A stretch of 64,000 nt of DNA, taken from positions 248,212 to 312,211 of the forward strand of contig JAVZHX010000001.1 of assembly GCA_038871515.1 (NCBI GenBank), written 5' to 3'. The translations under genes were made by a program, and so were the position numbers. Shown here piece after piece: positions 3,099 to 59,093 of the stretch (the stretch's first letter is position 1; every line of letters begins with the position of its first letter). This stretch comes from Candidatus Micrarchaeia archaeon (lineage in GTDB: Archaea > Micrarchaeota > Micrarchaeia > Burarchaeales > Fermentimicrarchaeaceae). A model generated the notes under the pieces. It searched no databases and was not told the origin of the DNA. It saw only the letters and a list, made by a program, of their open reading frames with translations.

Positions 3099-3109
3099 TC
3101 GCGACGTTC

Positions 3110-10662: not shown

Positions 10663-10747
10663 ATCTACCGTCGCCCTCTCCTTCCTCCTACTTAACGTAG
10701 GCAGTCCCAACAGAGTGCTTCATCTCCGGAGAGATGAATCGCAACTG

Positions 10748-11275: not shown

Positions 11276-11283
11276 GCGGTTTA
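10769..11283 (-). mobile_element. 16S rRNA intron (between GTTAAGTCCGGTAAAC and GAGCGAGACCC), about 515 nt, LAGLIDADG ORF
   Basis: Exon consensus on both sides; repeated CCGGTAAAC / CCGGAAAC at the junctions. Confidence 0.65.
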
Positions 11284-11326
11284 CCGGACTTAACCGGACA
11301 CTTCACAGCACGAGCTGACGATGGCC

Positions 11327-11432
11327 TTGTGCGAGAACGTCGCTTCTCCTTATAATCATAAATTGACGAGTGTCTGAGGACATTCAGAACAATATTCTTT
11401 ATATTTGTGTCTAATTAAGAGCGGCGTTCTCT
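11327..11432 (-). mobile_element. 16S mini-intron, about 106 nt, ORF-less (between GGTGGTGCAT and GGCCATCGTCAGCTCGTG)
   Basis: Insertion inside universally conserved GGTGGTGCATGGCCGTCGTCAGCTCGTG; AT-rich. Confidence 0.6.
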
Positions 11433-11535
11433 ATGCACCACCTCTCGGCTCGTCAGGCAAGATCTTCAGTCTGGCCTTCATACTGCCGTCGCTCCCGGTG
11501 ATATTCCCGGCGTTGAATCCAATTGAACCGCAGCT

Positions 11536-11608
11536 TGTGGAACTCCAACCCCTCGTTTACACTAACCGACATATACGCGTCGGAATTGGGTCAAGGGTTT
11601 GGAATTAA
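11536..11608 (-). mobile_element. 16S mini-intron, about 73 nt (between GGGGTGGA and AGCTGCGGTTCAATTGG)
   Basis: Interrupts conserved GGGGTGGAGCCTGCGGTTTAATTGGA. Confidence 0.55.
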
Positions 11609-11622
11609 TCCACCCCTTGTGG

Positions 11623-11651
11623 TATGGGAAACAATAAGAATACTTATTGTT
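11623..11651 (-). mobile_element. 16S mini-intron, about 29 nt (between GGGGGAGCA and CCACAAGGGG)
   Basis: Interrupts conserved GGCGGGGGAGCACCACAAGGGGTGGA; palindromic AACAATAAGTATTCTTATTGTT. Confidence 0.55.
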
Positions 11652-11667
11652 TGCTCCCCCGCCAATT

Positions 11668-11698
11668 CAGGAAGAACTAGCAATTGCTAATTCTTTTT
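11668..11698 (-). mobile_element. 16S mini-intron, about 31 nt (between AAAGG and AATTGGCGGGGG)
   Basis: Interrupts conserved AAACTTAAAGGAATTGGCGGGGGAGCAC; near-palindrome AAGAATTAGCAATTGCTAGTTCTT; only a 16-nt exon (11652-11667) separates it from the previous intron. Confidence 0.55.
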
Positions 11699-11724
11699 CC
11701 TTTAAGTTTCAACCTTGCGGCCGT

Positions 11725-11765
11725 AATTGGGGAAGCCCGCGCCGATAAATTTCGGTTAGGCTTCT
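11725..11765 (-). mobile_element. 16S mini-intron, about 41 nt (between CTGGGGAG and ACGGCCGCAAGG)
   Basis: Interrupts conserved GCCGCCTGGGGAGTACGGCCGCAAGG. Confidence 0.5.
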
Positions 11766-11792
11766 CTCCCCAGGCGGCAGACTTAACACCTA

Positions 11793-11833
11793 CGCTACGG
11801 CACTGCCGTAACCCTAAGTTACGGCAACACCAC
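11793..11833 (-). mobile_element. 16S mini-intron, about 41 nt (between GCAGACT and TAGGTGTT)
   Basis: Interrupts conserved GATGCGGACTAGGTGTTGGG; internal hairpin TGCCGTAAC...GTTACGGCA. Confidence 0.5.
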
Positions 11834-11866
11834 AGTCTGCATAATTTACTGCTAGGGCTACTCGGG

Positions 11867-11897
11867 TGTTTAGTAACTCGAGAAGGTGCTCGAATCA
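11867..11897 (-). mobile_element. 16S mini-intron, about 31 nt (between GGATTAGATA and CCCGAGTAGCC)
   Basis: Interrupts the universally conserved 790-loop sequence GGATTAGATACCCGGGTAGTCC; internal hairpin TCGAG...CTCGA. Confidence 0.55.
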
Positions 11898-12873
11898 TAT
11901 CTAATCCGATTCGTTCTCCTAGCCTTCGTCCCTCACTGTCGGACGCGTTTTGGCCAAGCGCCTTCGCCACTGGGAGTCCTCACAGGATTAACGGATTTTA
12001 CCCCTACCCCGTGAGTACTCTTGGCCTCCCCCGCTCCCAAGCCCGCCAGTATTCTCTGCACTCCTTCGAGTTGAGCCCGAAGATTTCACAGAGAACTTAG
12101 CAGGCCAGCTACGGACTCTTTAGGCCCAATATACGTGGATACCACTCGAGCTGCCGGTGTTACCGCGGCGGCTGTCACCGGTCTTACCCAGCTCTTATTC
12201 CACAAGCTCCTTAAGCTTGTGAAAAGATGCTCGCGTGGAGCATCACTCAGAATCCCCTCGTCACGCTTGCGCGCATTGCGAAGGTTTCGCGCCTGCTGCA
12301 TCCCGTAGGACTGGAGCCCTTGTCTCAGTGCTCCTCTGGGGGCGCCAACTCCCATTGCCCCCACCGATTATCGGCTTGGTGGGCCGTTACCCCACCAACT
12401 ACCTAATCGGAAGCAGTCTCATCCTAAGGCGGAAATGGCTGCATTTCGCCATTCCTTTTGGGCTATGAAGCGTTCCAGCATCCATAGCCTATGTGGTATT
12501 AGCCTCAGTTTCCCGAGGTTATCCCCCTCCTTAGGGTAGATTGACTACTCGCTACTCAGCCGTACGCCACCCCTCCTAGCAGAAGGGGTAGACTTGCATG
12601 GCTTAGTCGGATTCTGATAGCAGTACCCTCCAGCAGGATCAACTGGAGTTTTTCACGTTTAGAGCACACTTCCGCAAGTTCGGCGTAAGCACCACTAATC
12701 GCTCACTTCTCCTGTTCTTGAAGCCTCAGTCAAACCCAAACCTGCTTGGATTTCCATCAGATTGTGTGCTATAGAGGAAAGGTATCTATCACAGCACGAA
12801 ATGAGAATTCGCGCTCCATTTACGCCGGAGTCTATAGCGTCCGCACGGCGAATAAAGATTATACACACTCTTA

Positions 12874-32489: not shown

Positions 32490-33449
32490 CTCGCTTGCTG
32501 CTTTTTCTGGCGGAAAAGTGTTGATTATTATATCGCTCCCTAGCTCAAAACCCGCAAGCTTTGCCAAACGAGGGCATATCTCAATATGAAAGTGATAATC
32601 CTGCAAGTGGGAGAGGTGCAGGTAATAATTATACGGTGGGTTGTTGAGCAACCTGTGAAGCTTGCTCAAAACTCTTTTCAATGCGTCTGCCATTGAATTT
32701 TTTTCCTCATCACTCAGCTCCGTTATGTTTTTCACGTGCTTCTTTGGGATAAGCCAAACTTCAAATGGAAAACGAGAGGCAAAAGGTGCAAAGCAGACAA
32801 AGTGGCTGTTTTCAAAAACCTTTCTTTCAGATTCAAGCTCCATTGCAATCACATCGCAGAAAATACACCTCTTATACTTTTCGTAATACTCCTTATACGC
32901 CTTCATCTCCTCCTCAACCAAAGAAGGTATTCTCGGAAGAGCAATTATCTGGCTGTGCTCATGAACAAGCGAGGTTCCTGCTTCCTCCCCATGATTCTTG
33001 AAAACCAGCACATATTCTATTCCTTTTATTTTTCTTATTTCATCAACGCGCATGCAATACATATCAATAACCTTTCTTATTCCCTCAGCTGGAAGCTCGT
33101 GAAGATTTAGTTTGTGCTGGTTTGTTTCCACAACAACCTCATGCTTACCAAATGCTTTTGGAAAGTTTGTTGAGGTTGCTGGGTACATATTTTCAAAGCA
33201 CCTCACCTCCCATTCCTTTTCGCCAATTCTTGCTATCTCCGGGGGAGTGAGCTTCTCATTCCCAGGGCAGAAAGGGCATGTTCCCTCCTTCAGAGGAGGA
33301 GCTGCTTTCGCGTATTCATGCGGTCTCCTGCTTCTGTTCTCTGCAATTATCACCCATCTATCCAGAATGCAATCCTTTCTTAATTCATTCATAAAATCAC
33401 TATAAGAATGCTTCAACCTCATTTTTCTTTTTTTCACCCAACTCCTCAA
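32472..33449 (-). CDS. Galactose-1-phosphate uridylyltransferase-like HIT-family nucleotidyltransferase (GalT / Ap4A phosphorylase family)
   Basis: CPFCPGNE zinc motif and HxHxQ-like VHEHSQ. Confidence 0.65.
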   Translation of the reverse strand: MRSWVKKRKMRLKHSYSDFMNELRKDCILDRWVIIAENRSRRPHEYAKAAPPLKEGTCPFCPGNEKLTPPEIARIGEKEWEVRCFENMYPATSTNFPKAFGKHEVVVETNQHKLNLHELPAEGIRKVIDMYCMRVDEIRKIKGIEYVLVFKNHGEEAGTSLVHEHSQIIALPRIPSLVEEEMKAYKEYYEKYKRCIFCDVIAMELESERKVFENSHFVCFAPFASRFPFEVWLIPKKHVKNITELSDEEKNSMADALKRVLSKLHRLLNNPPYNYYLHLSHLQDYHFHIEICPRLAKLAGFELGSDIIINTFPPEKAASELAALP

Positions 33450-34905
33450 ACCTCCTTGCTAAAACATCTATCTGCTCCCCTTTTAATGATTTTTTTGATT
33501 TTCTCTTCCTTATTTTAACAAACACTGGGAAGTTAAGCGCTTCCCCAACAATAAGCGCTTCCCCAACTCTCAGCGTTGTTATGTTTTTCAGCATGGACTC
33601 ATCAAGCGCCTCGCATCCCTCTCCAATATGTTTAATATCATTTGGGTTGGTTACCCTCATTATTATATGCGTGTTTGCCTGGGCAAGCGCAGTTGTGCTC
33701 AGCTGAACAGGCCTCTGGCTTATCAACCCAATGGATGCGCCGAACTTTCTCCCCTCCCTTGCTATTTTTTCTATTATACTTTTTGAAATCATATCCTCCT
33801 TTGACGCTTTCTCCTTCGCAAAGTTATGGGATTCCTCAACAAGCAGCACAAACGGGGGGATGCGTTCTTTTTTTCTTGCAGCAAAAAGCTTCCTCGCAAA
33901 GTATGCGACGATGAACTGCTTCTTCCTTAGTTCATTTATCTCGCTTAAATCTATCACTGAAAGCTTCCCTGGCTGAGCAAGCTCGTGCACGCTTGGCGAG
34001 TCATTCCTCCCAAACAACCTCATTGATTTTAAAGAGTAGAGAGTTGCAGCAAGCGATGCTTTTGTTGTTTCCTTTGTATCGCTCTCCTGAACTCTTTGAA
34101 TTACATCATCCAAGTCAAAAAGCTCTCCCTTGGTTTTCTTTTCCTGCTTAAGCTCAATCAAAATATTTTCAATATCCCTTTTCTGCGCAGAGCTGAGCTG
34201 CGGAAGGAACTCCCTCAGCATCTGCGGGGAAATCCTGCTCACTCCTATGCGCACCTTTCTTCCATCAAAAACATTTGTTTTGCTTGCATACTCCGGAGTG
34301 CTTTTGAAACCTCCATATTCTCCGTGGACGTCAACAATTATCACGGCAACCCTCCCCTGCTCAGGAGTTCTGTCAAGCAGCTCCTCAATTATCACGCTTG
34401 CCAGGTATGACTTTCCAGCCCCGCTCATCGCAAGTATTGCAAAATGCTTCTGAAGCAACCTGTTCAAATTCAGTTTCACATCAATTTTGTGATGCTCAAC
34501 TTCACCAATAAACAAACCTGCTGGGTCAAACCCAAGTATCCTTGTGAGTATATTCTCGTCTGCCAAGCTGACCTTGCTTCCAGGGGCGGGAGGGAATGCG
34601 TTGCGGAAAAGGTTTTCCTCCCTGTACGTGCCAAGAATTCTCACATCCGCAACTGTGTATTCCCACTCTGTTGTTGGGAAGTTCTTCAAGAGAGGCTCCC
34701 CTCCCCTTTCGTACTCGGCCACGCTCTCTGCCCTCTCAAAGTATCTATTCGCCCTTGTTATATCTGTTACAAAGCCAATGAGCAACCCATCCTCTGCTTC
34801 AATCTGCACATAGTGCCCTTTCCTAACTTTGCTGTTGTTAACAACAAATGAGAACTCGGTTGTTGAAGGACCATCAAACGTTGTTATCACAGTTCCAAGT
34901 TCCAT
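33400..34905 (-). CDS. herA: HerA-like (FtsK/HerA family, DUF87) hexameric ATPase/helicase
   Basis: Walker A AILAMSGAGKSY, Walker B VLLVEESHNF, about 500 aa, NurA gene upstream. Confidence 0.7.
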   Translation of the reverse strand: MELGTVITTFDGPSTTEFSFVVNNSKVRKGHYVQIEAEDGLLIGFVTDITRANRYFERAESVAEYERGGEPLLKNFPTTEWEYTVADVRILGTYREENLFRNAFPPAPGSKVSLADENILTRILGFDPAGLFIGEVEHHKIDVKLNLNRLLQKHFAILAMSGAGKSYLASVIIEELLDRTPEQGRVAVIIVDVHGEYGGFKSTPEYASKTNVFDGRKVRIGVSRISPQMLREFLPQLSSAQKRDIENILIELKQEKKTKGELFDLDDVIQRVQESDTKETTKASLAATLYSLKSMRLFGRNDSPSVHELAQPGKLSVIDLSEINELRKKQFIVAYFARKLFAARKKERIPPFVLLVEESHNFAKEKASKEDMISKSIIEKIAREGRKFGASIGLISQRPVQLSTTALAQANTHIIMRVTNPNDIKHIGEGCEALDESMLKNITTLRVGEALIVGEALNFPVFVKIRKRKSKKSLKGEQIDVLARRFEELGEKKKNEVEAFL

Positions 34906-35745: not shown

Positions 35746-36792
35746 TCACCTGAAAGGCCTGCTGTTGCTTCTCAAAGGAAGGAATGAAACTCTTCTCCCA
35801 GCTCTGAGCAGAAGGTTCTGGCAAACTCTTTCAACCTCCTCTCTTTCCAACGCAGCCCTCATATCAGCTTCTATCAGCACTGCGGGGTATGCATACTTCT
35901 GGTTAATTCTGCTTAAGGAGTATATTAAAGATGCTACCTCAGAAGCCGTTCTCTCTGCTTTTAGAAACTCAACGCGCAGCGGTCTATCGTTTTTAACTGG
36001 TTTCACGTAAAATGCATGAACGCTCGCTCCCCACTTCCCCAAATCCTTCAGCACCTGGTGCTCCCTCTCAGGGCTTGAGTAGTGAAACTCAAAAACCCTC
36101 TCCCCTTCGTTTAGAAGAAAATGCAGGAAGGAGGTGTCGTTGGATGTTTTCAGAATCTCCCCCTCCGCAATAGTTTTTTCAACTATCTCTATAAACCTCT
36201 TCCCCCTGCTGTCCTTTATCACTCCTATCAACTGGCAGTTATTCTCTTTGCAGTAAGAATAAAGGGAGTTGTACAATTCAAGCAGTGAATTATAAAGCGG
36301 GCGCACCGATGAGTTTTCTGATGGTTTGTCAGAAATCTGAGGAACAATTGAGCCGTCAAGCAGAAGGTAATCTGGCTTGAATTTCTTTACTGTTTCACAA
36401 GCAGTTTCAACCTCCTTCTTCAACCTTGCAAGCGATTTATGCCATGTGAACTCGTGCGAGTCAAGCGCTGTGAGCGCGCTTGGCTCTGCTTCAGGAGCGC
36501 GGGATGGGTGGTAGCTGTGTGAAATTCTTTTTGAGTTTTTGTATTCAAATATCACCGAAACTGCTCTTGTTAAAACTAAATCAAACCCGTGAAACTCCTG
36601 CGCGCCCAACCCCCCATCAACAGCTGCAACCCTGCAGTTCAGCTCAACAGGTTCAACTTTGTGAATTAAACCTTTCTCAAGCGCTTCTGGATAAACCTCT
36701 CTCCCTTCCTCGCGAAGTTTCTCCGCCAACTCCGCCCTTTTCCTCTCAAGCTCATCCATTCTATTTATAAGCTCAGCCAGCTTTTCATGCAT
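35746..36792 (-). CDS. nurA: NurA-like 5-prime to 3-prime nuclease
   Basis: VAAVDGGLG motif (NurA catalytic Asp region), size about 350 aa, adjacent herA. Confidence 0.6.
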   Translation of the reverse strand: MHEKLAELINRMDELERKRAELAEKLREEGREVYPEALEKGLIHKVEPVELNCRVAAVDGGLGAQEFHGFDLVLTRAVSVIFEYKNSKRISHSYHPSRAPEAEPSALTALDSHEFTWHKSLARLKKEVETACETVKKFKPDYLLLDGSIVPQISDKPSENSSVRPLYNSLLELYNSLYSYCKENNCQLIGVIKDSRGKRFIEIVEKTIAEGEILKTSNDTSFLHFLLNEGERVFEFHYSSPEREHQVLKDLGKWGASVHAFYVKPVKNDRPLRVEFLKAERTASEVASLIYSLSRINQKYAYPAVLIEADMRAALEREEVERVCQNLLLRAGRRVSFLPLRSNSRPFR

Positions 36793-39040: not shown

Positions 39041-39478
39041 TTGTGGATGAGCAATTCTATGGGTGTTTTTATGAGGATACTCAGACCAGAAAGATCTGTG
39101 TTTTTCAACCCAGAAATGCAGGCTGCTTTGGAAAGGGAGAGAAATAGAAGGGCTGTGGAAATGCTGACAAGCAACAAAAGTGAGGAGCGCATGGAGGCTG
39201 CGGAGAGACTGCTTAAAGTTGTTAAAGACAGCTCAGTGAGAAAGGAGCTTGAGCTTGTGCGTGACATTGCAAAGGAGAGCAGAATAATTGAAAAAATAGA
39301 GAAAGAGGAGGGGAAGATTGATGCAATGCCAAAGGAGAAAGCTGCAAAATACGCTTCATACATAAAAGATTATACAGAGAGAAAGGAGGAAGCAGCAGAG
39401 AATATTGCAAGGTTTATATCTGAAAGAAAGATGAGCGATGTGGAGCTGCAGGAGAATTTGAAAAAAGTGCTAGCCTGA
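39041..39478 (+). CDS. Hypothetical coiled-coil protein (145 aa)
   Basis: Charged, heptad-like E/K/R-rich sequence. Confidence 0.3.
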   Translation: MWMSNSMGVFMRILRPERSVFFNPEMQAALERERNRRAVEMLTSNKSEERMEAAERLLKVVKDSSVRKELELVRDIAKESRIIEKIEKEEGKIDAMPKEKAAKYASYIKDYTERKEEAAENIARFISERKMSDVELQENLKKVLA

Positions 39479-40195
39479 TTTATAATAATCGCAGAGTTTA
39501 TTCAGCACACATAAGTTACATTCTGGATTCCTTGCTCTGCATATCTTTCTTCCGTGAAGTATGAAGTTTATGTGAAGGGTTTTCTTCTCATCAGAAGGGA
39601 TAAGTTCATTCATAATTTTATGGGCTTTCTCAGAGCTTGCTTCTTCTGGTATCAACCCCAACCTCTTGGCAATTCGCATATTATGTGTGTCCAGAGGCAT
39701 TGTTGGCTTGTTGAAGCAGAAAAGCAGAAGCACGCTTGCGGTTTTTGGCCCAATTCCGTCAATTGAGCGAAGGAATTCAAATGCATCATCAGCAGACATT
39801 TTACTTAGAAAATCCAGGCTCAGCTTCCCTCTTCTCCTCCTTATCTCGCTAAGCGCCTTTTTTATTCTACGCGCTTTTATTTTTGACAAACCACCTGGGC
39901 GAATTGCTTTCTGAATTTTTCCTAAATCTGCATCAAGAACAAGCTCCCATTTTGGAAACTTCCGTTTGAGACTGAAAAAAGCAGCTTGGGAGTTCCTGTC
40001 GCTTGTATTCTGAGATAAAATTGTTCCAACTAAAACGTCAAGGGGGTTGCTCCTTTCGTCTATGGAGTGAACCCCGTACTCCCGCTTCAAAATTTCTATA
40101 ACTTCTTTCAGCTTTTTCACGCATTTATTTAAAGCACGAAATAATAAATGACTACATGAAAGGAATTTGTTCAATTTGTGGAAGGGAAACCGCAA
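39470..40195 (-). CDS. nth: Endonuclease III (HhH-GPD DNA glycosylase with [4Fe-4S] cluster loop)
   Basis: LVGTILSQNTSD HhH-GPD region and C-terminal CxxxxxxCxxCxxxxxC (CRARNPECNLCVLNKLC). Confidence 0.8.
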   Translation of the reverse strand: MRFPFHKLNKFLSCSHLLFRALNKCVKKLKEVIEILKREYGVHSIDERSNPLDVLVGTILSQNTSDRNSQAAFFSLKRKFPKWELVLDADLGKIQKAIRPGGLSKIKARRIKKALSEIRRRRGKLSLDFLSKMSADDAFEFLRSIDGIGPKTASVLLLFCFNKPTMPLDTHNMRIAKRLGLIPEEASSEKAHKIMNELIPSDEKKTLHINFILHGRKICRARNPECNLCVLNKLCDYYKSG

Positions 40196-40295
40196 GCTTT
40201 ACGTGCAGTTTATGTGGTGCGCTTGTTGGGGTGAACTGCTACGACCCTGTGGGAAAGGTTTGCATACGCTGCAAGGCAGGAAGGATGATTAGATG
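40157..40295 (+). CDS. Small Zn-ribbon protein (45 aa; CSICGRE...CSLCGA...CIRCK)
   Basis: Cys pairs; overlaps start of the downstream primase-polymerase-like gene; not in ORF track. Confidence 0.35.
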
Positions 40296-41198
40296 AGCTT
40301 AGCTGAGCTTGCGAAGAATAAAGATGTAGTGAAACCATTTGGAGAAGTTGACGTTCTGCTTTACTATGGAATTGTGGGAAGCAAGCTTGTTGGTTTTTTG
40401 AAGGGAAAGGAGCTTGCAGCGAAAAACTGGTTCCCTCCAAAAGGTGGTTTGCCAACAGTTCTTAAAAGAGGTTCAAAGGAGGAGCCGCTTTACATAGATG
40501 AATTTGTTGATGCGATAACACCTGGGTTTCTCTCATTGAGAGGGAAGCACCTTGAGGAAGTTAGAGATAAACTCGCTCCTTCCCAGCAGAAAGTGTGGCG
40601 CTACTTTGTCCCAAGGAAGCTCTCTGATTTGTTTTATGCGACAAACAATGAGGGGGAAGGTAAATCTATCGACAGAATTTTCTTTGATTTGGATAGGGGG
40701 GAGGGAGTTACTTCTGAATATGCACAGCAGGTAGCAAGGGAGTTCCTTGCTGTTATGGAGGATGATTTGAGGGAGTTGAACTGCGAAAAAAGATTTGTGA
40801 TGTGGACTGGGAGCTCCTTTCATGTTTATCTATTTCTCAAGAAGAGAATGCCTCCCTCCTTTTACGAGGAAAACTTTCAGGTCAGCACAAAAGGTGGACT
40901 TCAAACAGCAGCGCAGAAGTGGGTTGATGAGTTGAAGAAAAAAGGGTTGAAGGTGAGCGGGAGCCATGAAAAAATTGCGGGAGTTGTTGCAATAGACCCA
41001 TCTCAAACTCCCTCAGGGAAATTGGCAAGAGCTCCCTTCTCGCTGCACATGCAGGATTATAAAACAATCAATGGGGTTGCAATTCCGCTTGATTTGAACA
41101 TGCTTGATGATAAGAAATTGGTAGAGGAGCTGAAGCAGTATACGCCAAACAGAGTCGTTGAGGAGCTGAACTCTCTTTCAAAAAGACTGCCATTGTGA
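40293..41198 (+). CDS. Archaeo-eukaryotic primase (AEP) superfamily protein resembling the LigD polymerase/primase domain (NHEJ PolDom-like)
   Basis: Motif I FFDLDRGE, motif II WTGSSFHVYLFL, motif III region VAIDPSQTPSGKLARAPFSLH (compare LigD aPYSlR). Confidence 0.6.
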   Translation: MSLAELAKNKDVVKPFGEVDVLLYYGIVGSKLVGFLKGKELAAKNWFPPKGGLPTVLKRGSKEEPLYIDEFVDAITPGFLSLRGKHLEEVRDKLAPSQQKVWRYFVPRKLSDLFYATNNEGEGKSIDRIFFDLDRGEGVTSEYAQQVAREFLAVMEDDLRELNCEKRFVMWTGSSFHVYLFLKKRMPPSFYEENFQVSTKGGLQTAAQKWVDELKKKGLKVSGSHEKIAGVVAIDPSQTPSGKLARAPFSLHMQDYKTINGVAIPLDLNMLDDKKLVEELKQYTPNRVVEELNSLSKRLPL

Positions 41199-41202
41199 TT
41201 TT

Positions 41203-41634
41203 ATGAAGTTTGAAAAACTAGTTAGGGGAAGGGTTGTTTTCATTGGAGTTGGAAACGAGCTGAGGGGTGATGATGGAGTTGGTGTTTACATTGCAAGAAA
41301 ACTGAGAAAGAAGAATGTAATTAATGCGGGAGTTGCACCTGAGAATTTTATTGGAAAAATAAAGAGGATGCAACCTGAAAGAATAGTAATTTTTGATGCG
41401 CTTGATTTTGGAGGGAAACCTGGAGAAGTGAGGGTGGTTGATGCAAGGAAAACTGAGGGAATAAAAATTTCAACTCACTCCCTACCCCTTTCATTTTTCT
41501 GCAAGCTTTTTGATGGAGTTGAAGTTTATTTGGTTGGGATACAGCCAAAAGAAAGGGAGTTTGGTGCTTCACTCAGCAAGGAAGTTGTGAGAAGCGCAGA
41601 CAGGTTAATTGCTGAGCTAGCGGTGTCTTCTTAG
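41203..41634 (+). CDS. [NiFe]-hydrogenase maturation endopeptidase (HycI/HybD family)
   Basis: GVGNELRGDDGVGVYIA signature and downstream STHSLPL. Confidence 0.85.
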   Translation: MKFEKLVRGRVVFIGVGNELRGDDGVGVYIARKLRKKNVINAGVAPENFIGKIKRMQPERIVIFDALDFGGKPGEVRVVDARKTEGIKISTHSLPLSFFCKLFDGVEVYLVGIQPKEREFGASLSKEVVRSADRLIAELAVSS

Positions 41635-42970: not shown

Positions 42971-43840
42971 ATGACGTACAGAATAGCAAAACCAGGTGAA
43001 ATAATTGTTGAAGCGCAGGAGAGGTATCCTGGCTCTTTTTACGATAAAGTTTCAAGCAGCAAGTACATGGATGAGTTCTATAAGAAAGCAGTTGAAGCAT
43101 CTGGTGTTGTGAAGCTGATTGAGAGCAGAGAGGATACGGTAAGGGTTGTTGATGTGGCCGGTGGAAGAGGCAGAGTTGGGGAGATGATAAGGAAGATGAC
43201 GGATAAGAATTTTGAATACATTGTAGTTGACATAAGCAGAAAGGAGATGGGAGATGATAAGGATAAAGTGAAAATTGTTGGCGACATGGCGCACATTCCC
43301 CTGAAGAATTCAAGTGCAGATGTTGTATTTTTCCTCAACATGCCAGTTCCAATTTCACTTATTAAAAGAAAGGCTGAGACGATGACTCCTGGAAGCTTGG
43401 TTGAGGTTGAGGAACTTTGGAGCATAAAAATGTATCTTGGCAATTCAATAGATGCAGCTTTCAGAAGCAATATGCTTGAGGGGCTTAGGGTGCTCAAGCC
43501 AGATGGAGTTCTTGTAACCGGTGCGAAGCATGTTGGGCAGTCCAAAGAAGTGGCAGAAGAGGCGTTTAGGGAGTTTCCGCTTAGGGTTGAGAAACAGGAG
43601 GTTGTTGAGCTTGACAGCAAAGTTATACCGCTGTGGAGAAAGTACGGTTTGGGGTTGGAGGATCCAAAGTTTGTTATCACGACTTACAGGAGAGTTGAAG
43701 GGAATGTTGAGAGCCTTATTGAGCATGAAAAAGAGAGATTGGAAAGGAATTTGGGAAAAGCGATGGAGATGGAGACTTTTTGGAAAGTTATGGAGGAGTT
43801 CAGGAAGGAGAAGTGGGTGCCGGAGGAATTTTCTGAATGA
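42971..43840 (+). CDS. Class I SAM-dependent methyltransferase-like protein, uncharacterised family (paralog A of tandem triplet)
   Basis: VVDVAGGRGRVG (motif I-like), acidic VVDISRKE, DVVFFLNMP; conserved C-terminal VIPLWRKYG. Confidence 0.55.
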   Translation: MTYRIAKPGEIIVEAQERYPGSFYDKVSSSKYMDEFYKKAVEASGVVKLIESREDTVRVVDVAGGRGRVGEMIRKMTDKNFEYIVVDISRKEMGDDKDKVKIVGDMAHIPLKNSSADVVFFLNMPVPISLIKRKAETMTPGSLVEVEELWSIKMYLGNSIDAAFRSNMLEGLRVLKPDGVLVTGAKHVGQSKEVAEEAFREFPLRVEKQEVVELDSKVIPLWRKYGLGLEDPKFVITTYRRVEGNVESLIEHEKERLERNLGKAMEMETFWKVMEEFRKEKWVPEEFSE

Positions 43841-43873
43841 AGCAATTAAATATGTTGGATGCGTAATTAAAGT

Positions 43874-44722
43874 ATGATTCATAAGATATCTAAACCGGAA
43901 GACATCCTTCTTGAAGCTCAGAAGCTCTACCCAACAAAGTTTCACGAAGTTTCCGAGAGCACTTACATGGATGAGGTTTACAGAAAAGCCGCTGCTCTTT
44001 CTGGAATTAAGGAGTATGTTGGAAAAACAAAGAGGGAAGTGAACGTTGCTGATATTGCTGGCGGGAGCGGAAGGCAGGGACATATAATCAGAAGCATGCT
44101 GAAAGATGAAGCGCGGAGAGTGACGATACATAATATAGATATAAGCAAGGAGGAGCTGAGCAAAAGAAAAGTGGATGAGAGAATTGTTGGCGAGATTATG
44201 CATCTCCCATTTGTGGATAGAAGTATGGATTTTGTTTTTATGAATAACATACCAATTCCAATTTCGCATGTGAGGAATTACGTTGCTTTTATGAAGGATG
44301 AGAGCGGAAGAAAAGGCATGATGCTGGAGATGCTTGAGCTTGCTGTTGACTCTGTTTATAAATTGAACACGCTTGAAGGTGCTAGGGTGCTTAAGGATAA
44401 TGGAGTTATGGTTGTCAGTGGTAAGTACACTGGACAGAGCAGCGAAAGCATTCAGAAAGGACTTGGCGAGCTTCCCCTAAAAGTTGAGAAATTTGAGGTT
44501 GTGGAGCTTGAGGAAGGAGTAATTCCTCTTTGGAGGAAGTATGGTATAGAGATAGAGAAGCCAACTTTTATGGTTGCCTCCTTTAGAAAAACATCTTCGG
44601 ATTTAAAGGAGCATTTTGAGCTGTATGAGCAGATGCTTTACACAAGCTTGGAGCAGTTGATGAGAATTGAGGGGTTTGAGGATGTTTTGAAAGAGATGCA
44701 CAGAAAAAATTTGAAATGGTAA
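43874..44722 (+). CDS. Class I SAM-dependent methyltransferase-like protein (paralog B)
   Basis: VADIAGGSGRQG, IHNIDISKEE, DFVFMNNIP, VIPLWRKYG. Confidence 0.55.
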   Translation: MIHKISKPEDILLEAQKLYPTKFHEVSESTYMDEVYRKAAALSGIKEYVGKTKREVNVADIAGGSGRQGHIIRSMLKDEARRVTIHNIDISKEELSKRKVDERIVGEIMHLPFVDRSMDFVFMNNIPIPISHVRNYVAFMKDESGRKGMMLEMLELAVDSVYKLNTLEGARVLKDNGVMVVSGKYTGQSSESIQKGLGELPLKVEKFEVVELEEGVIPLWRKYGIEIEKPTFMVASFRKTSSDLKEHFELYEQMLYTSLEQLMRIEGFEDVLKEMHRKNLKW

Positions 44723-44753
44723 AGTAATAAATCCGAAACTTCATAATTTATGC

Positions 44754-45664
44754 ATGGTGGAGAAGTTTGCAGAAGAAGAGAATCTTTTAAGAAAAGTGCA
44801 AATTCTCTATCCCGACTCCTTTTACGATAAAGTTTCAAGCAGCAAATTGATGGGCAAGTTCTATGAAAAAGCAATTGAGCTTTCGGGAGTTGTTGGGCTT
44901 ATTGAAAAGAGCACGCCAGGAAAAGTGAGCGTGGTTGACATATGTGGGGCAGAGGGATTGTTGGCGATAGAATAAAAAGTATGACGAATAAGGAGTTCAA
45001 CTATATAGTTGTTGATATAAGCAGAAGGGAGCTTGGAAGCGAGCAGTGGAAGAATAGAGTGATGGGAGATATGCTGCACATTCCTCTTAAAAATGAAACT
45101 GCGGATGTTGTGTTCTGTCTCAATATGCCGGTTCCACTTGCGCAGGTGAAGGAGCATGCAAAAGTGACGAAAGCAGATAATTTGAGTGAGGAGTGGGATA
45201 GGGAGAAAGTGATGAATATTTTGAATGACGCAGTGGATAACATATGTGAGCTGAACCTTCTTAACGCAGCAAGAATTCTCAAAAACAACGGTGTGCTTGT
45301 GCTCGGAAACTCATTTGCTGGGCAGACTGAGGAGGATGCAAGAAGACAGGTGAAAGAAATTCCAATGAAGCTTGAAAGATATGCGAGAGTGAAGCTGAGC
45401 AACCGAGTTATACCACTTTGGAAGGAATATGGAAGTGAGGTGAGTTCACCTGTTTTTGTGCTTGTGTGTTTCAGAAAAGTTGAAGGGAGTGTTGAGGAGA
45501 GCATTAAATTCAGGGAAGCTGCGCTCAGAGATGATTTTCAAGAGCTTGAGAGAAGCGAATTCTTCAAAAAAATTATAAAAGAAATGGAGAGGGGAGCTTC
45601 GGCGAAGAAAGGGGAAACGTTTGCAATTGATAAGAGTTTGTTTGAAAGTATAAAATGGGAGTAG
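44754..45664 (+). pseudogene. Paralog C of the methyltransferase-like triplet, reading frame broken by a 1-nt loss in a G-run at about 44949-44955 (pseudogene or homopolymer sequencing error)
   Basis: Frame 1 gives ...VVDICGAEGLLAIE*, while +2 frame continues GRGIVGDRIKSMT... matching paralog A GGRGRVGEMIRKMT. Confidence 0.5.
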
Positions 45665-45665
45665 T

Positions 45666-47858
45666 TTATTTTATGAGTTTTTCAAGAATCTCCTTTGCTG
45701 CTTTTTTATTCAAATTCCTGTTATTATTCCCGCACTGCGGATCCAGAATGCAGGAGGGGCAACCACTTCTGCACTTGCACTTCATCAATCTTTCATACGC
45801 CATCTTTTCAACTCTCTCAAACTTTTCAAAAATTATTTTTGACAATCCAGCTCCGTGAGGAGTTGAATCGTAAACATACATCCTCCCAGCAGGATAGCTC
45901 ACCCCTCCCAACTCAGATGGATCTGCTCCAGTTAAAGCAGGCATCATCGCAATTGAAACATGCTCAACTGCATGCAACCCAGATGGAAAATCATCTACGG
46001 AAAAAACAATTTTCTCAGGAAAATCAAACCAAACTGCAAGAGTGTCAAACTCATAATGCAACGGCTCATCAAGCGGAATTCTGCTGCTTATCCTCTCTTT
46101 CAAATAATCCTTCACAACATAACCGTAAACCTCATCTGAAATGTGAACTCTACCGTATGAAAGCTCCCCTCCCAAACACTCCCTTTCTCCAAGCAACTCA
46201 GTCACTTCGGCTTCTCTGTTGCGCAGAGCAACTGTATACTCAGATGTTTCATAACTGAGCTTTCTCACAAATGCAATTTTTCTCACCAAATCCAGCTTCT
46301 CAGAAACAAACTTCTCCCCTCCATGTAAGTAGATTGCACCGGGGAATAGCTCGCTGTACGCCATCGCCTCCTCCCTTTCACCTATGAACTTCTCTCTCTC
46401 CACATCATATATCCTTATTGACGAGCCAGCCGTCCTTATGCTCATCTCCCTCACAACCCTCAGCCCTCTCCTTGTAGGAATCCAGCAACCTGCAAACTCC
46501 TTGCACAGCTCCTCAGCTTTCAGCTGAGAGAAAAGCTTCTCCCCCATTGGAAATGAGTTGATTTCGTCAATGCTTGCTGGGTAATCCCGCATCATTGAGA
46601 GAAGGTGGGGTTTTAGTATAAACTCATTCTGGGGGTTTACGTAACAGCTCTCCGGCTCCCCTTTCAAATACTCATGTGGATTTTCAAAATAATACTGGTC
46701 AAGCGGGTTGTCTCGAGCGATGAAAACAGCTGTTGCCTCCCTTCCCCTCCTTCCTGCCCTTCCAATTCTCTGCCTCACCCTTGTAACCGTTCCTGGGAAG
46801 CCAGCAAGAATTACTAAGTCAACGGCACCTATATCCATCCCAAGCTCCAAAGCAGATGTTGCGACAAGCGCATCCGTACTGCCTGACTTGAACTCCTGCT
46901 CCAACTTCCTTCTCTCCTCCCTCTCCAATCCAGCCCGGTATATTTTTATTTCATGTAAATTCGTTTCCTTTGCAACTATCCCAATTCTCTCAACAACAGA
47001 GTGGCTGTTCCCAAATATCAGCAGCTTCCTTCCTTTTCCAATAAGCTGCCTTGCAACTTTCAAGGCAAGCGTTGTATAGCTCTCCCTCCCCTCCTCTGTT
47101 AAAGGAGGGTTCAGCAGTATGTGCTTAACCGTGCTTCTTGGAGCATAGCGCGCATCCACCAAAGAGAAAGGCACCCCTGCAAGCTGCTCGGCAAACTCCA
47201 ATGCATTCCCAACAGTTGCTGAACAGCAGATGAACTGCAGTTTATTTTTGGAGTATTTCAAGTGAACTCTCTTCAACCTTTTTATTATATTTGAGGAGTG
47301 GCTTCCAAACGTTCCCGTGTATGTATGTATTTCATCAATTACAACAAACTTCAAGTAAGAAAGAAACTTTTTGAACAGATGCGAGTTAAGGAGAATGAAG
47401 TGAAGCATATCCATATTTGTTATCAAAATATGCGGTGGCTCCTTCCTTATTCTTTCCCTAATATGCGCAGATGTATCACCATCATAAACCTCGCTTTTCA
47501 CACCAAGCAGAGCAAACTCCCTAAATCTTGCTAGCTGATCCCGCGAAAGCGCTTTTGTTGGGTAGATAACAATGCTCCTCTCTCCTTTCAACGCGGACTC
47601 AATAACTGGAATCATATATATTTCAGTTTTGCCAGAGGCAGTTGGAGCAGTTACAACAACATTCTCCCCTTCTCTCACTTTTTTGATTCCGTCTGCCTGA
47701 TGCTTGTAAAACTTCTCAATTCCTCTCCCATGCAGAATATGCATTATTTCCTCTGAAACTTCAACCTCCCCGAACTTCGCAGAATCTCCTTTCTCCAGAA
47801 ACTCCTTTACTTCCCCTTCTATAAGCACGAATATATTTCGTAAGAAAGCAATAAACAA
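45666..47858 (-). CDS. DEXH-box helicase with C-terminal DUF1998 (MZB) zinc-binding domain, YprA/MrfA-like
   Basis: Walker A APTASGKT, DEIH box, helicase-C, C-terminal four-Cys cluster CKCRSGCPSC...C. Confidence 0.75.
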   Translation of the reverse strand: MFIAFLRNIFVLIEGEVKEFLEKGDSAKFGEVEVSEEIMHILHGRGIEKFYKHQADGIKKVREGENVVVTAPTASGKTEIYMIPVIESALKGERSIVIYPTKALSRDQLARFREFALLGVKSEVYDGDTSAHIRERIRKEPPHILITNMDMLHFILLNSHLFKKFLSYLKFVVIDEIHTYTGTFGSHSSNIIKRLKRVHLKYSKNKLQFICCSATVGNALEFAEQLAGVPFSLVDARYAPRSTVKHILLNPPLTEEGRESYTTLALKVARQLIGKGRKLLIFGNSHSVVERIGIVAKETNLHEIKIYRAGLEREERRKLEQEFKSGSTDALVATSALELGMDIGAVDLVILAGFPGTVTRVRQRIGRAGRRGREATAVFIARDNPLDQYYFENPHEYLKGEPESCYVNPQNEFILKPHLLSMMRDYPASIDEINSFPMGEKLFSQLKAEELCKEFAGCWIPTRRGLRVVREMSIRTAGSSIRIYDVEREKFIGEREEAMAYSELFPGAIYLHGGEKFVSEKLDLVRKIAFVRKLSYETSEYTVALRNREAEVTELLGERECLGGELSYGRVHISDEVYGYVVKDYLKERISSRIPLDEPLHYEFDTLAVWFDFPEKIVFSVDDFPSGLHAVEHVSIAMMPALTGADPSELGGVSYPAGRMYVYDSTPHGAGLSKIIFEKFERVEKMAYERLMKCKCRSGCPSCILDPQCGNNNRNLNKKAAKEILEKLIK

Positions 47859-55655: not shown

Positions 55656-56408
55656 GTGAAGTTGATGGTGGAGATAGAAATTGAGGATGCTAAGTATTGG
55701 AAGAGCTGTGTTGATTCAATAGTTAACCTGATTGATGAGGGGAACTTTGAAATTGATGCTGATAAAATATCACTCCGGGCGATGGATCCTTCCCAGATAG
55801 CGATGGTGTGCTTCTCCATTCCAAAAAGCGCATTCAGCAAGTACAAGGTTGCTGGAGCAACAAGGATAGGGGTTAACTTTGACAGCATGAGCAAAATTCT
55901 TTCAAGGAGCAGGGGGCAGGAGAAGCTGAGGATGAGCGTTGAGGAGAATAAATTGGTTTTGGAGTTTGTTGGGGAGGGAAAGAGGAGTTTCAAGCTTCCA
56001 CTTCTTGAGCTTCAGGAGGGAGTTCAAAAGGAGCCAAAAATAGATTTTGACTCGGTTGTTAAAATAAAAGCAGGCCAGTTCAAGGAAATACTTGGAGATG
56101 CAGCGTTGTTGAGTTCTCACGTTGTGCTTGAGGCAACTGGCAAGGGATTTTTTGTTGAGGTGCACGGTGATTCAGGAGATTTGAGGGTGGAGAGGGAGAA
56201 AACTGGTGAAGCAACTTTAAGCGTTGAGGTGAAGAAGGATTCAAGAGCGACATTCCCACTCCAATTCCTTGGTGATATGGTTAAAGCATGCCCTGATAAT
56301 GAAACTGTTTCCCTTCATTTAAAAACAAATTCACCAATAAAAGTGGAGTATAGCATTGGGGAGGCGAAGCTTGTTTACTACCTAGCTCCAAGAATAGAGA
56401 CAATCTAG
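55656..56408 (+). CDS. pcn: DNA polymerase sliding clamp PCNA
   Basis: About 245 aa, IGEAKLVYYLAPRIE C-terminus. Confidence 0.9.
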   Translation: MKLMVEIEIEDAKYWKSCVDSIVNLIDEGNFEIDADKISLRAMDPSQIAMVCFSIPKSAFSKYKVAGATRIGVNFDSMSKILSRSRGQEKLRMSVEENKLVLEFVGEGKRSFKLPLLELQEGVQKEPKIDFDSVVKIKAGQFKEILGDAALLSSHVVLEATGKGFFVEVHGDSGDLRVEREKTGEATLSVEVKKDSRATFPLQFLGDMVKACPDNETVSLHLKTNSPIKVEYSIGEAKLVYYLAPRIETI

Positions 56409-56465
56409 TTAAGAACTATTTTATATTTTAGCTGAGAAATCCATCCTACTGCAAATGCTATTTGA

Positions 56466-57428
56466 GTGATTAGGATGGAGCTTGCATTCTGCAGCAAATA
56501 CCCATTCACTAAGGAGGCGAAGGAGTTGGTTAGCTCCGCAAAGGTGAGCGATGAGTTCAGGCTTGTTGAGATGGGAAAAGAGAGAGTTGCGCGAGCAATA
56601 AAGGACGGGGTTATACCAACAGTGAATTTTGAGCTTGATGAATCACAGATTCTTCTTCAGGTTACTTCATATGCGATAAGCAGAATGATTGTTTCCATAC
56701 TTGGAAGCAGGTATTACATAAACAGATACTCGGTTGCAGAGGCGAAGAGAGCAGGAAGGTATTTGGAGGGGGACACTGATGAGAATGTGCTGAGGGTGGC
56801 ACGCGAGCTTGGAATTGAGTGCGAGATTGATGGCGACTACTCGGTGGGGTTTGAGAAGTATCTAAAATATGCGCCAAAATCTGTTGATTACAAGCTTGTC
56901 AACAGAAAGTTGAAGGGAGGGGTGGTGAAGCTGAAGAGAAGCGAGTTCATCAGGTTGATTGAAGAGGCGGTGAAGATGAAAATTGAGTCGGAGCTGCCCC
57001 TCAGAGTTGAGAATGTGCCAGCGAATATAAGGAAAGCAGCTGAATCTGTTAGGGCAAGCATCCCAAAGGAGCCAGTTCCGGCAAAAATCGCTCAAAAAGG
57101 CGATTTTCCACCATGCATAAAAAAACTGCTGGATGATTTGAAAACTGTTGAGAATTTGGGGCATACTGCGAGGTGGGCTTTGGCAGTCTATCTTCTCAAC
57201 AGCGGGATGAGTGTTGATGAGGTGGTGAGAATTTTCTCAACGTCTCCTGATTTTGATGAGAGAGTCACGCGGTATCAGGTTGAGCATGCGCAGAAAAGAG
57301 GTTATAAAATGCCAAGCTGCGCAAGCATGGATTCAAATGGGTTGTGCGTTGCAAACTGCGGGGTGAAAAACCCACTTAGCTATAGGAGGGGAGTTGTTGG
57401 AGTTACAGCTGAGGGTGAAAAACCCTGA
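56466..57428 (+). CDS. priL: DNA primase large subunit PriL (Fe-S domain)
   Basis: C-terminal Cys cluster PPCIKKL...MPSCASMDSNGLCVANCG. Confidence 0.8.
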   Translation: MIRMELAFCSKYPFTKEAKELVSSAKVSDEFRLVEMGKERVARAIKDGVIPTVNFELDESQILLQVTSYAISRMIVSILGSRYYINRYSVAEAKRAGRYLEGDTDENVLRVARELGIECEIDGDYSVGFEKYLKYAPKSVDYKLVNRKLKGGVVKLKRSEFIRLIEEAVKMKIESELPLRVENVPANIRKAAESVRASIPKEPVPAKIAQKGDFPPCIKKLLDDLKTVENLGHTARWALAVYLLNSGMSVDEVVRIFSTSPDFDERVTRYQVEHAQKRGYKMPSCASMDSNGLCVANCGVKNPLSYRRGVVGVTAEGEKP

Positions 57429-58563
57429 AGAGGATTATGCAAGAAGTAAATTCAGGCAGTATTACGAGAGGAATGAGATTAAACCTCCAGAGCAGATTGA
57501 GAAAAGGGAGTGGGGTTTTGGTGGGTGGGAGAAGAAAATAGAGGTGAGGCACCTTCAGATAGCCAGTAAGGATGAGCTTAAGAGCAGGCTTGTGAGGGAT
57601 GCTCCTCTCTTTGTCTCGTATTCAACTGCGTATTACGAGTTTCCTGACATGCGCCCAATGGAAAAGAAGAATTGGCAAGGTGCGGATTTGGTTTTTGATT
57701 TGGATTCGGATCATTTGGAAGTGCCGTGCAAGAAAACTCACGGAAGCAAGTGGGTATGCGATAGCTGTCTTGAAAAGGTAAAGGAGGAAACGGTTAGGTT
57801 GATTGAGCAGTTTTTAATTCCTGACTTTGGCTTCTCAAAGAAGGAAATTGAGGTGAACTTCTCTGGGAATAGGGGGTATCATGTGCACGTGAAAAAGGAA
57901 TCCGTCAGGGAGCTTGGGGGGTATGCGAGAAGGGAGATTGTGGATTATTTGAGTGGCACGGGAGTGGATTTTGAAGCAGTTGGCTTCACTTACGAAATGG
58001 TATCTGAGAGAAGGGAGAGAAAACTTGTTGGGCCAAAACCAAGCGATGCTGGTTGGGCAGGGAGAATTGCAAGGTTTGTTAGGGAGGCTGCTGTGGAGGG
58101 AAAGCTTGGGGAGGTTGGGGTGGAGGAGAGGGATGCGAGAAAAATTTACAAAAGAGTTGGGGAGTTCGCGCGTTTAATTGAGCAGGGGAATTGGGATGCG
58201 GTGAAAATTCAGAATAAGGATAAGTTTTGGAGAGGAGTTGTTGGAAGGTTGGGGGTGAAGCTGGGTGATAGAATAGATCAGAACGTTACTGCGGATGCGA
58301 CAAAGCTGATACGCCTTCCAGACAGCCTGCACGGGGAAAGTGGGCTTGTTGCGAGGAGAGTTGGAAGTATTGATTCCTTCGATCCTTTGAAGGATGCAGT
58401 TGTTTTCGGTGAGCAACCAGTAAGGATTAAAATTAGGAATGCACCTGAATTTAGGTTGGGTGAACAAACCTTCGGCCCATTCAGGAATGAGGAGAGGGAG
58501 CTGCCGGAGAGAGCAGCTTTATTCCTGATTTGCAAGAAGGAGGCAGTTTTATGGAAGAGCTGA
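57394..58563 (+). CDS. priS: DNA primase small catalytic subunit PriS (AEP)
   Basis: LVFDLDSDH (DxD) and FSGNRGYHVHV motifs. Confidence 0.85.
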   Translation: MLELQLRVKNPEEDYARSKFRQYYERNEIKPPEQIEKREWGFGGWEKKIEVRHLQIASKDELKSRLVRDAPLFVSYSTAYYEFPDMRPMEKKNWQGADLVFDLDSDHLEVPCKKTHGSKWVCDSCLEKVKEETVRLIEQFLIPDFGFSKKEIEVNFSGNRGYHVHVKKESVRELGGYARREIVDYLSGTGVDFEAVGFTYEMVSERRERKLVGPKPSDAGWAGRIARFVREAAVEGKLGEVGVEERDARKIYKRVGEFARLIEQGNWDAVKIQNKDKFWRGVVGRLGVKLGDRIDQNVTADATKLIRLPDSLHGESGLVARRVGSIDSFDPLKDAVVFGEQPVRIKIRNAPEFRLGEQTFGPFRNEERELPERAALFLICKKEAVLWKS

Positions 58564-59093
58564 CGTATGAGGAATTGAGAAGAATTCAGGCTAGGGAGAG
58601 GGCGAGCCCAGTTCTTCAGAGCTTGCCTCAGGGTTTTTACAAAGCTGTGGGGAAGTTGATTGAAAAAAAGAACAGCTCCCTTAAAAGTAACTTCAGTTTA
58701 ACAGAAGCAAAGGAATATGAAAATATACTAAAAGTTATTGAGGATATTTATGAGAGGAGGAAGCAGAAGATAGTGATGAAAGCGATGAGGAGCGGGGAGG
58801 AGGGCGCTTTGGCTGAGGAGGAGAAGGAGTTCTTCAGCAAGATTCGCAAGGTGATTGAGGAGGAAGCTGAGAGTTTTAAAAAGAATATTGGAGTTGTTGA
58901 GGGGGAGAGGGAAAGTATTAAAAGAATTAAAATTTTAAAACACCTTCCCAAGTTCGTTGGAAGCGATTTGAAGGTTTATGGTCCTTTTGAGGAGGGGGCA
59001 AGCGTTGAGCTGCCTGAGAGAGAGGCGCAGCTTCTTGTGAGGAGAGGAGTTGCGGAGTATACAGGAGGTGTCAAGGATGAAGTTCCCAAATGA
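58530..59093 (+). CDS. GINS subunit Gins51-like
   Basis: About 180 aa helical protein immediately after priS, the conserved position of archaeal gins51. Confidence 0.55.
   Translation: MQEGGSFMEELTYEELRRIQARERASPVLQSLPQGFYKAVGKLIEKKNSSLKSNFSLTEAKEYENILKVIEDIYERRKQKIVMKAMRSGEEGALAEEEKEFFSKIRKVIEEEAESFKKNIGVVEGERESIKRIKILKHLPKFVGSDLKVYGPFEEGASVELPEREAQLLVRRGVAEYTGGVKDEVPK

Follow-up and report, generated by a model that had tools for sequence, protein, structure and literature searches.

A LigD-polymerase-domain-like primase-polymerase encoded beside an Nth-like glycosylase gene in a Micrarchaeon: a candidate stand-alone repair polymerase

The stretch of DNA analyzed here, referred to in the following as the window, comprises 64,000 nucleotides (nt) from a Candidatus Micrarchaeia archaeon (contig JAVZHX010000001.1, positions 248,212 to 312,211), and all coordinates and strands given below are those of the window. 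Our main subject is an open reading frame (ORF) at 40293-41198 (+ strand) whose predicted product of 301 amino acids (aa) is a member of the superfamily that the archaeo-eukaryotic primases (AEPs) form; judged by its modeled structure, it falls into the clade formed by the polymerase domain (PolDom) of LigD and by Prim-PolC, in which it represents a distinct archaeal family. This ORF is part of a compact gene arrangement. It is preceded by a Cys-rich Zn-ribbon ORF of 46 aa (40156-40296, + strand), the stop codon of which overlaps the AEP start within an ATGA sequence. The TGA stop codon of the AEP gene (41196-41198) is followed, after 4 nt, by the ATG of an ORF (41203-41634, + strand; 143 aa) encoding a HycI-type [NiFe]-hydrogenase maturation endopeptidase. 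A terminator scan found no + strand terminator-like sites between the three genes. A first-pass annotation of this DNA had described an operon-like set composed of the AEP, the Zn-ribbon ORF and a HycI protease that starts 4 nt behind the AEP gene; the coordinates and the common + strand orientation confirm this layout, and only the dimensions of the overlapping Zn-ribbon ORF, given as 45 aa from 40157, had to be corrected to 46 aa from 40156. We therefore speak of an operon-like arrangement, in which HycI is probably co-transcribed with the AEP gene. Divergently oriented from this group lies a gene (39470-40119, - strand) whose product is an Nth-like HhH-GPD glycosylase carrying an Fe-S cluster loop. 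The AT-rich intergenic region of 36 nt between them (40120-40155; gcatttatttaaagcacgaaataataaatgactac) contains TATA-like runs and presumably serves as a promoter region shared by the glycosylase gene and the three genes of the operon-like group.

In profile searches, the AEP protein passes the gathering cut-off of the Pfam family LigD_Prim-Pol (PF21686) marginally (28.1 bits against 27.4; E 1.9e-6), and it clearly fails the NCBIfam equivalog model TIGR02778 (ligD_pol; 20.8 bits, cut-off 214.7). Members of the same family from Methanobacterium and Hadarchaeota have no Pfam match. Three sequence blocks, D132-L-D134, G173-S-S-F-H177-V-Y and A247-P-F-S-L-H252, are readily discernible, and the first-pass annotation had equated them with the three AEP motifs. 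All three blocks are indeed present, but this assignment holds for the first two only. An alignment with 32 relatives that are 50-88% identical to the window protein has 42 invariant columns. Among them are D132 and D134 of motif I, S175 and H177 of motif II and D235 of motif III, as well as K243, R246 and H252. We have reassigned motif III to D235, which is embedded in the sequence AIDPSQ, because this residue is invariant among the relatives and because the APFSLH block further downstream matches a block typical of PolDoms (APYSLR in the Mycobacterium tuberculosis enzyme).

An AlphaFold2 model derived from the family alignment is of high confidence (pLDDT 94.3, pTM 0.91); taken together with the E-value of the Pfam match, it places the resemblance to the LigD PolDom far beyond chance. 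When this model was used in Foldseek searches, the best match was the LigD PolDom of M. tuberculosis (E 8.6e-11; the second, unlabeled figure reported for this match was 18.5, and corresponding figures follow in brackets), succeeded by the LigD PolDom of Pseudomonas aeruginosa at 9.6e-07 (18.1), Prim-PolC at 2.6e-06 (17.5) and the NHEJ (non-homologous end-joining) polymerase of Methanocella at 4.0e-06 (17.4). Replicative primase small subunits followed at 7.0e-05 or weaker (10.8-12.8), and the top matches were AEPs throughout. The three-dimensional architecture of the model is hence nearer to PolDoms than to replicative primases, and it combines the AEP fold with the DxD of motif I, the SxH of motif II and the Asp of motif III. 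On the grounds of model and sequence taken together, ORF 40293-41198 encodes a PolDom-like AEP with intact catalytic residues. This identification, already proposed by the first-pass annotation, stands since an AEP ranks first among the structural matches and since the catalytic Asp residues are conserved.

The AEP protein has many relatives. A search of 5.8 billion proteins yielded 497 of them (as clusters at 90% identity), and a pattern scan of species-representative genomes detected at least 105 family loci whose products are 44-77% identical to the query, so that the notion of stand-alone archaeal PolDom homologs as rarities can no longer be upheld. An identical protein, annotated as hypothetical, is present in a metagenome-assembled genome of a 'Candidatus Micrarchaeia archaeon'. 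On the DPANN side, the family occurs in Micrarchaeota, Aenigmarchaeota, Woesearchaeota, Pacearchaeota and Nanoarchaeia; further holders are Altiarchaeia, Hadarchaeota, Hydrothermarchaeota and Bathyarchaeia, to which about 15 genomes of Methanobacterium are to be added, among them those of the cultured strains M. oryzae DSM 11106, sp. ACI-7 and MBAC-LM. Family members are 290-320 aa long and, in a rough neighbor-joining tree, group mostly by taxon. A family profile run against 1.84 billion representative proteins recovered 117 sequences at E ≤1e-3, about 45 of them full-length; the matches form one unbroken series that begins at E 1e-139 and tails off into fragments no longer than a family member, and a second population is not seen. 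Bacterial LigD PolDoms were evidently not reached by this profile, since they exist in thousands and would have produced far more than 117 matches. Against sequences in the PDB, the similarity of the profile to PolDoms was marginal (E 0.053) and weaker than that of the single sequence, so that the profile did not assist in locating the functional residues of PolDoms. In terms of sequence, we are dealing with a tight, slowly evolving and separate family; in terms of modeled structure, it is a branch of the PolDom/Prim-PolC clade that is roughly equidistant from the four solved members. We found no relatives in IMG/VR (peptide-pattern scan), PHROGs or PADLOC, which argues for a cellular gene and rules out, as far as these collections and this type of scan reach, an AEP of a mobile element or a defense system. 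No paper describing the family was found in the literature.

The genomic surroundings of the AEP gene were assessed in 83 non-redundant loci of up to 17 kb, in which ORFs were called, neighbors were clustered and searched with probes, and representatives were annotated; a gene counts as a neighbor when its distance from the AEP gene is no more than 3 kb. A LigD-type 3'-phosphoesterase (PE) gene is a neighbor in 10 of these loci, all from DPANN archaea, where it often abuts the AEP gene (Pfam LigD_N, 139 bits; TIGR02777, 153 bits, with the cut-off at 144). An ATP-dependent DNA ligase is encoded next to the AEP in 15 loci, namely in 13 of the 15 Methanobacterium loci and in Hadarchaeota; these ligases are of the three-domain dnl1 type (TIGR00574, 484-498 bits), and in Methanobacterium the ligase gene overlaps the AEP stop codon, by 4 nt in several loci. 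Nth-like HhH-GPD glycosylase genes, detected with a phmmer probe, are found in nine of the 23 Micrarchaeota loci and nowhere else among the 83. They come in two arrangements: divergent from and directly adjacent to the AEP operon in the window and in loci L004, L007, L008 and L014, or downstream and beside a PE gene in L005, L017, L020 and L027. A NUDIX hydrolase (Pfam NUDIX, 57.2 bits) is a neighbor in seven loci, six of them from Woese-, Pace- and Nanoarchaeia, where the gene is mostly divergent, and one unclassified. At least one member of the group PE, HhH-GPD glycosylase, ligase and NUDIX hydrolase is present in 36 of the 83 loci. The three enzymatic modules of LigD consequently recur in the vicinity of this AEP family as separate genes, alongside enzymes acting on base damage.

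Two of these settings have additional features. In Woese-, Pace- and Nanoarchaeia, the AEP gene can be flanked by the divergent NUDIX gene and by a downstream gene for a 130-aa HExxH metallopeptidase (PF18894, 'putative phage metallopeptidase'; 82.9 bits). The latter occurs in nine of the 83 loci (eight from these lineages and one unclassified), and loci of the NUDIX/metallopeptidase type are L033, L037, L039, L045, L050, L054, L063, L072 and L081. In Methanobacterium, a conserved operon (7080-10690 in L062, and equivalents) encodes, in this order, a glutaredoxin, a rubredoxin-domain protein that resembles ferredoxin-thioredoxin reductase, the AEP and the dnl1-type ligase, and a second dnl1 ligase paralog is encoded about 6 kb downstream in these loci. 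The composition of this operon hints at a redox or oxidative-stress link of the AEP-ligase repair pair.

In the window itself, the Nth-like glycosylase is the sole partner of the AEP from this repair kit. Its product matches Pfam HhH-GPD (60.9 bits) and EndIII_4Fe-2S, and scores 110.5 bits, below the cut-off, against TIGR01083 (nth). The likely start codon is the GTG at 40119, although the longest ORF extends to 40195, and a gene of 216 aa is called in L087. As read from the sequence, the protein keeps the Lys of a GIGPKTA motif and the Asp of an LDTH motif, which we take, from what is known of the Nth family, to be the marks of bifunctional glycosylase/AP (apurinic/apyrimidinic) lyases. The first-pass annotation had found the positioning of the AEP gene next to an endonuclease III gene and a hydrogenase protease gene odd. 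For the former, the recurrence of the Nth-like gene in Micrarchaeota in two different arrangements speaks against this judgement, and it has a parallel in the link of the Prim-PolC/LigC pair to base excision repair (BER; PMC5663958). The seemingly odd context hence resolves into one meaningful neighbor, the glycosylase, and one incidental neighbor, HycI.

From these data, we consider it reasonably probable that the AEP is a catalytically competent stand-alone repair polymerase, which would serve as the polymerase module of a split-LigD-like kit and, in the organism studied here, fill gaps after base excision. We model the proposed pathway, by analogy, on the role of mycobacterial Prim-PolC and LigC. 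The Nth-like glycosylase/AP-lyase would excise a damaged (oxidised) base and nick the strand, and a 3'-end-cleaning enzyme, a function for which sister lineages possess the PE, would then restore the 3'-OH group. The AEP would fill the resulting gap of 1-3 nt in a template-directed and metal-dependent reaction involving D132, D134 and D235, before the nick is closed by an ATP-dependent ligase whose gene would lie elsewhere. The fold, the conserved active site, the spread of the family, its gene neighborhoods and the existence of a separate replicative primase are observations of this study, and polymerase activity, the gapped substrate, the partnership with the glycosylase and the sugar preference are predictions from them.

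Several observations weigh against this proposal. Neither a PE, nor a ligase, nor Ku is encoded in the 64-kb window according to phmmer searches, as the first-pass annotation had already stated for Ku and the ligase, and none of the three is present among the Pfam-annotated called genes in the 10 kb on either side of it; a LigD-type fusion or operon with ligase, phosphoesterase or Ku is thus lacking at this locus. The similarity to PolDoms in sequence is marginal in both profile searches described above, and in 47 of the 83 loci none of PE, HhH-GPD glycosylase, ligase or NUDIX hydrolase lies within 3 kb. The divergent pairing of the glycosylase and AEP genes suggests co-regulation but falls short of proving it. 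When the residues of the 5'-phosphate-binding pocket (N13, K16 and K26 in the M. tuberculosis PolDom; N20, K23, Y25 and K35 in Prim-PolC) are compared, K10 and K14 of the AEP, which adjoin the invariant P15, are at best candidate counterparts, given the weak N-terminal alignments. Furthermore, Prim-PolC (PDB 5op0, 6sa0) clamps short gaps with its C-terminal Loop 3 (residues 313-333), and the window AEP, with its 301 aa, is too short for such a loop; its last 35 residues are helical.

The most serious competitor of a gap-filling repair enzyme is a classical Ku-dependent NHEJ polymerase, which would cooperate with Ku (as a homodimer), a phosphoesterase and a ligase of the LigD type, all encoded elsewhere in the genome, and which would fill or extend the ends of breaks as in Methanocella paludicola or in mycobacteria. 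The fold of the AEP is that of NHEJ polymerases, and the adjacency of PE genes in 10 loci likewise speaks for such a system. Moreover, an Aenigmarchaeote locus (L021, 65-8488) encodes a PE-AEP pair and, at a distance of 5-7 kb, a ligase of the NHEJ type (286 bits with TIGR02779) together with Ku (265 bits with TIGR02772), both above the NCBIfam equivalog cut-offs, so that the full Ku/Lig/PE/Pol set is contained in 8.5 kb. However, this is the only one of the 83 loci with the full set and the only one in which Ku with an NHEJ ligase was detected; since the Ku probes are validated only in that the L021 protein they retrieved passed TIGR02772, this negative result is a reasonable but not an exhaustive one. 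In addition, Ku is missing from the window and its 10-kb flanks, and the ligase that accompanies the AEP in Methanobacterium and Hadarchaeota is of the three-domain dnl1 type and not of the LigD type. The segment presumed to correspond to the Loop 1 synapsis hairpin of PolDoms (residues 60-105) is modeled as helices with no beta-hairpin. We consequently regard a classical NHEJ function as unlikely, and the label 'NHEJ-type' that had been attached to the AEP by the first-pass annotation as uncertain.

A different function is brought into play by the small ORF located upstream of the AEP gene. Its seven Cys residues follow the pattern C-x2-C-x8-C-x2-C-x7-C-x7-C-x2-C, and it has only weak zinc-finger matches in Pfam, all under cut-off, without a family assignment in Pfam or NCBIfam; the name 'orotate phosphoribosyltransferase' carried by the 40156-40296 protein at NCBI is without support from either collection. 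All seven Cys residues are kept in five of the 83 loci, namely in the window, in L004, L007 and L008 (all Micrarchaeota), and in the Woesearchaeal L073, where the ORF is divergently oriented. A scan for the motif across about 1.2 Mb of fetched loci placed every occurrence within 90 nt of an AEP gene. A homolog search returned two proteins only and was uninformative on distribution, because small ORFs are rarely called. The Zn-ribbon ORF is a real gene, and its product may be a lineage-specific accessory subunit of the AEP whose synthesis would be translationally coupled to that of the polymerase. One could therefore envision that the AEP is a primase or a re-priming enzyme, to which the Zn-ribbon would contribute a zinc module of the sort on which initiation by many AEP primases depends, and that it starts chains de novo in a PrimPol-like restart downstream of lesions. 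AEPs of the PolDom-like clade can prime, and the finding of the ORF only beside the AEP gene, even in opposite orientation in the Woesearchaeote, fits this idea. On the other hand, the ORF is confined to five loci, fused forms were not found among the longer family members, and the neighbors of the AEP elsewhere are genes for end processing, ligation and excision, not for helicases or parts of the replisome. We consider a priming function improbable, all the more so as a full PriSL primase is encoded in the window.

This primase is part of a compact replication cluster (55656-59093, + strand) that consists of the genes for PCNA (55656-56408; Pfam PCNA_N/C), PriL (56466-57428; DNA_primase_lrg, 93.6 bits), PriS (57394-58563; DNA_primase_S, 67.1 bits) and Gins51 (58530-59093; Gins51_C). 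PriS and PriL belong to the same AEP superfamily as the protein under study, and the PriS profile PF01896 does not match the latter. The presence of PriL and PriS in the same window marks the AEP encoded at 40293 as an additional, non-replicative AEP. The canonical two-subunit priS/priL has been reported to be retained in Micrarchaeota (PMC7414124), and cluster-2 DPANN archaea possess a different, monomeric PriS-PriL fusion primase (PMC7414124; bioRxiv 10.64898/2026.06.17.729505). With PriL/PriS encoded nearby and the monomeric DPANN primase being this different cluster-2 protein, the AEP can be dismissed as the replicative primase of DPANN archaea. Recent work implicates PriSLX in the repair of double-strand breaks in archaea (PMC12019639).

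The HycI ORF is a conventional representative of its family (Pfam HycI, 63.2 bits, cut-off 23; TIGR00142, 118.5 against 119.1; superfamily TIGR00072, 100.5 against 47.45), and its sequence displays the motifs GNELRGDDG, DALD and THS. The enzyme it presumably processes is a group-4 [NiFe] hydrogenase, the genes of which lie about 40 kb upstream of the AEP gene. Subunits of this membrane-bound enzyme (NuoB-like, NuoH-like and 4Fe-4S) are encoded at 592-2139 (+ strand; Pfam Oxidored_q6, NADHdh and Fer4), and the large subunit (376 aa; NiFeSe_Hases and Complex1_49kDa), which ends with DPCLSCTER followed by a C-terminal extension of 16 aa, as is typical of HycI substrates, is encoded directly upstream of the window in L088. 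Positions 1-2139 of the window and 5194-11548 of L088 form the hydrogenase operon, with genes for Complex1_30kDa, antiporter-like, large-subunit, NuoB-like, NuoH-like and Fer4 proteins; for a Micrarchaeon, an energy-conserving module of this kind is noteworthy. As this conventional substrate is encoded just upstream of the window, and as HycI follows the AEP gene only in the window, L004 and L008, the second neighbor that had been called odd turns out to be an ordinary one, and HycI is probably a functionally unrelated passenger whose pairing with the AEP is incidental. A true link between the AEP and hydrogenase maturation, for which the 4-nt spacing and the missing + strand terminator-like site could be quoted, is highly improbable in view of this substrate and of the absence of HycI behind the AEP gene of L007 (77% identical) and of the other loci, and so is a decaying or mobile-element remnant without a cellular role, given the 42 invariant columns kept across phyla and the lack of viral, PHROG or PADLOC relatives.

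The window contains further features. The rRNA operon (2761-12649, - strand) is of unusual dimensions: the large-subunit gene spans 4.9 kb compared with a model of 2987 nt, and the small-subunit gene extends over 3.0 kb and has a 3' piece set apart at 8902-9025. Both are interrupted by LAGLIDADG_3 ORFs (5873-6745, 7552-8469 and 8948-9601), and we therefore interpret the expansions as rRNA introns with homing endonucleases. Genes for HerA (33400-34905) and NurA (35746-36792) lie on the - strand with a gene for a Yip1-domain membrane protein between them; in relatives, the Yip1-domain protein carries an N-terminal B-box-like Cys motif that resembles the Zn-ribbon ORF. Three tandem paralogous methyltransferase-like genes (42971-45664, + strand) follow, the third of which is apparently split or frameshifted (44754-44975 and 44942-45664). 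Next to them, and 4.5 kb from the AEP gene, a DEAD/Helicase_C helicase is encoded (45666-47858, - strand) whose C-terminus carries an MrfA Zn-binding (MZB) domain; it is syntenic in L004, L007 and L008, and its best similarity in PADLOC is to BrxH/DruE-type helicases.

Which polymerase fills the gaps left by base excision and by single-strand breaks is poorly answered for archaea, and so is the importance of LigD-like end-joining modules outside of a few Ku-bearing species. A family with 45-55% identity between Micrarchaeota and Methanobacterium that is recurrently linked to PE, ligase, Nth-like and NUDIX genes, and almost never to Ku, is an indication that organisms whose genomes are very small possess a repair polymerase independent of Ku. 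As cultured Methanobacterium strains carry members of the family, this proposal is directly testable, and the hydrogenase protease next to the AEP is removed as a false lead. More tentatively, and with considerable doubt attached to the proposal as a whole, the family might provide DPANN archaea, Methanobacterium and a number of further lineages with a dedicated Ku-independent polymerase for short gaps and strand breaks, a functional analog of Pol beta or Prim-PolC, that has an aromatic steric gate in place of a His residue, prefers dNTPs, and has gained in one Micrarchaeal clade a Zn-ribbon subunit adding priming or DNA-end recognition.

Among the characterized enzymes, the LigD PolDoms (Prim-PolD; M. 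tuberculosis Rv0938 and P. aeruginosa LigD; PDB 2iru, 2fao) are 14-24% identical to the window AEP; in contrast to them, the archaeal family is never fused to a ligase, and Ku is almost always absent from its vicinity. In PolDoms, a His residue (His111 in M. tuberculosis, His651 in P. aeruginosa) contacts the 2'-OH and confers a preference for rNTPs (PMC7072297). Among the 32 relatives, residues 95-125 of the AEP contain no conserved His; W102, Y104, F105, F114 and Y115 are invariant instead, and a pairwise alignment of low confidence sets F105 opposite to His111, the exact equivalent being uncertain. These aromatic residues resemble the Tyr that, as cited in the same study (PMC7072297), serves as a steric gate in AEPs with a preference for dNTPs, from which we predict, with low confidence, a preference of the AEP for dNTPs. 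The stand-alone NHEJ polymerase of Methanocella paludicola (PDB 5dmu), part of an archaeal Ku/Lig/Pol/PE system, is about 15% identical to the window AEP; it is a typical PolDom that works with Ku, whereas the family described here is a separate branch found mostly without Ku nearby. Prim-PolC binds and fills gaps of 1-3 nt that bear a 5'-phosphate and passes the nick on to LigC (PMC5663958, PMC7442782). The ligase partner of the archaeal family, absent from the window, differs from LigC in being of the dnl1 type, and the family itself is archaeal in lineage. What the two share is the genomic association with genes for BER glycosylases, seen here in the Micrarchaeota loci; Prim-PolC interacts with BER enzymes, and its gene is in an operon with that of FPG in some mycobacteria (PMC5663958, PMC7442782).

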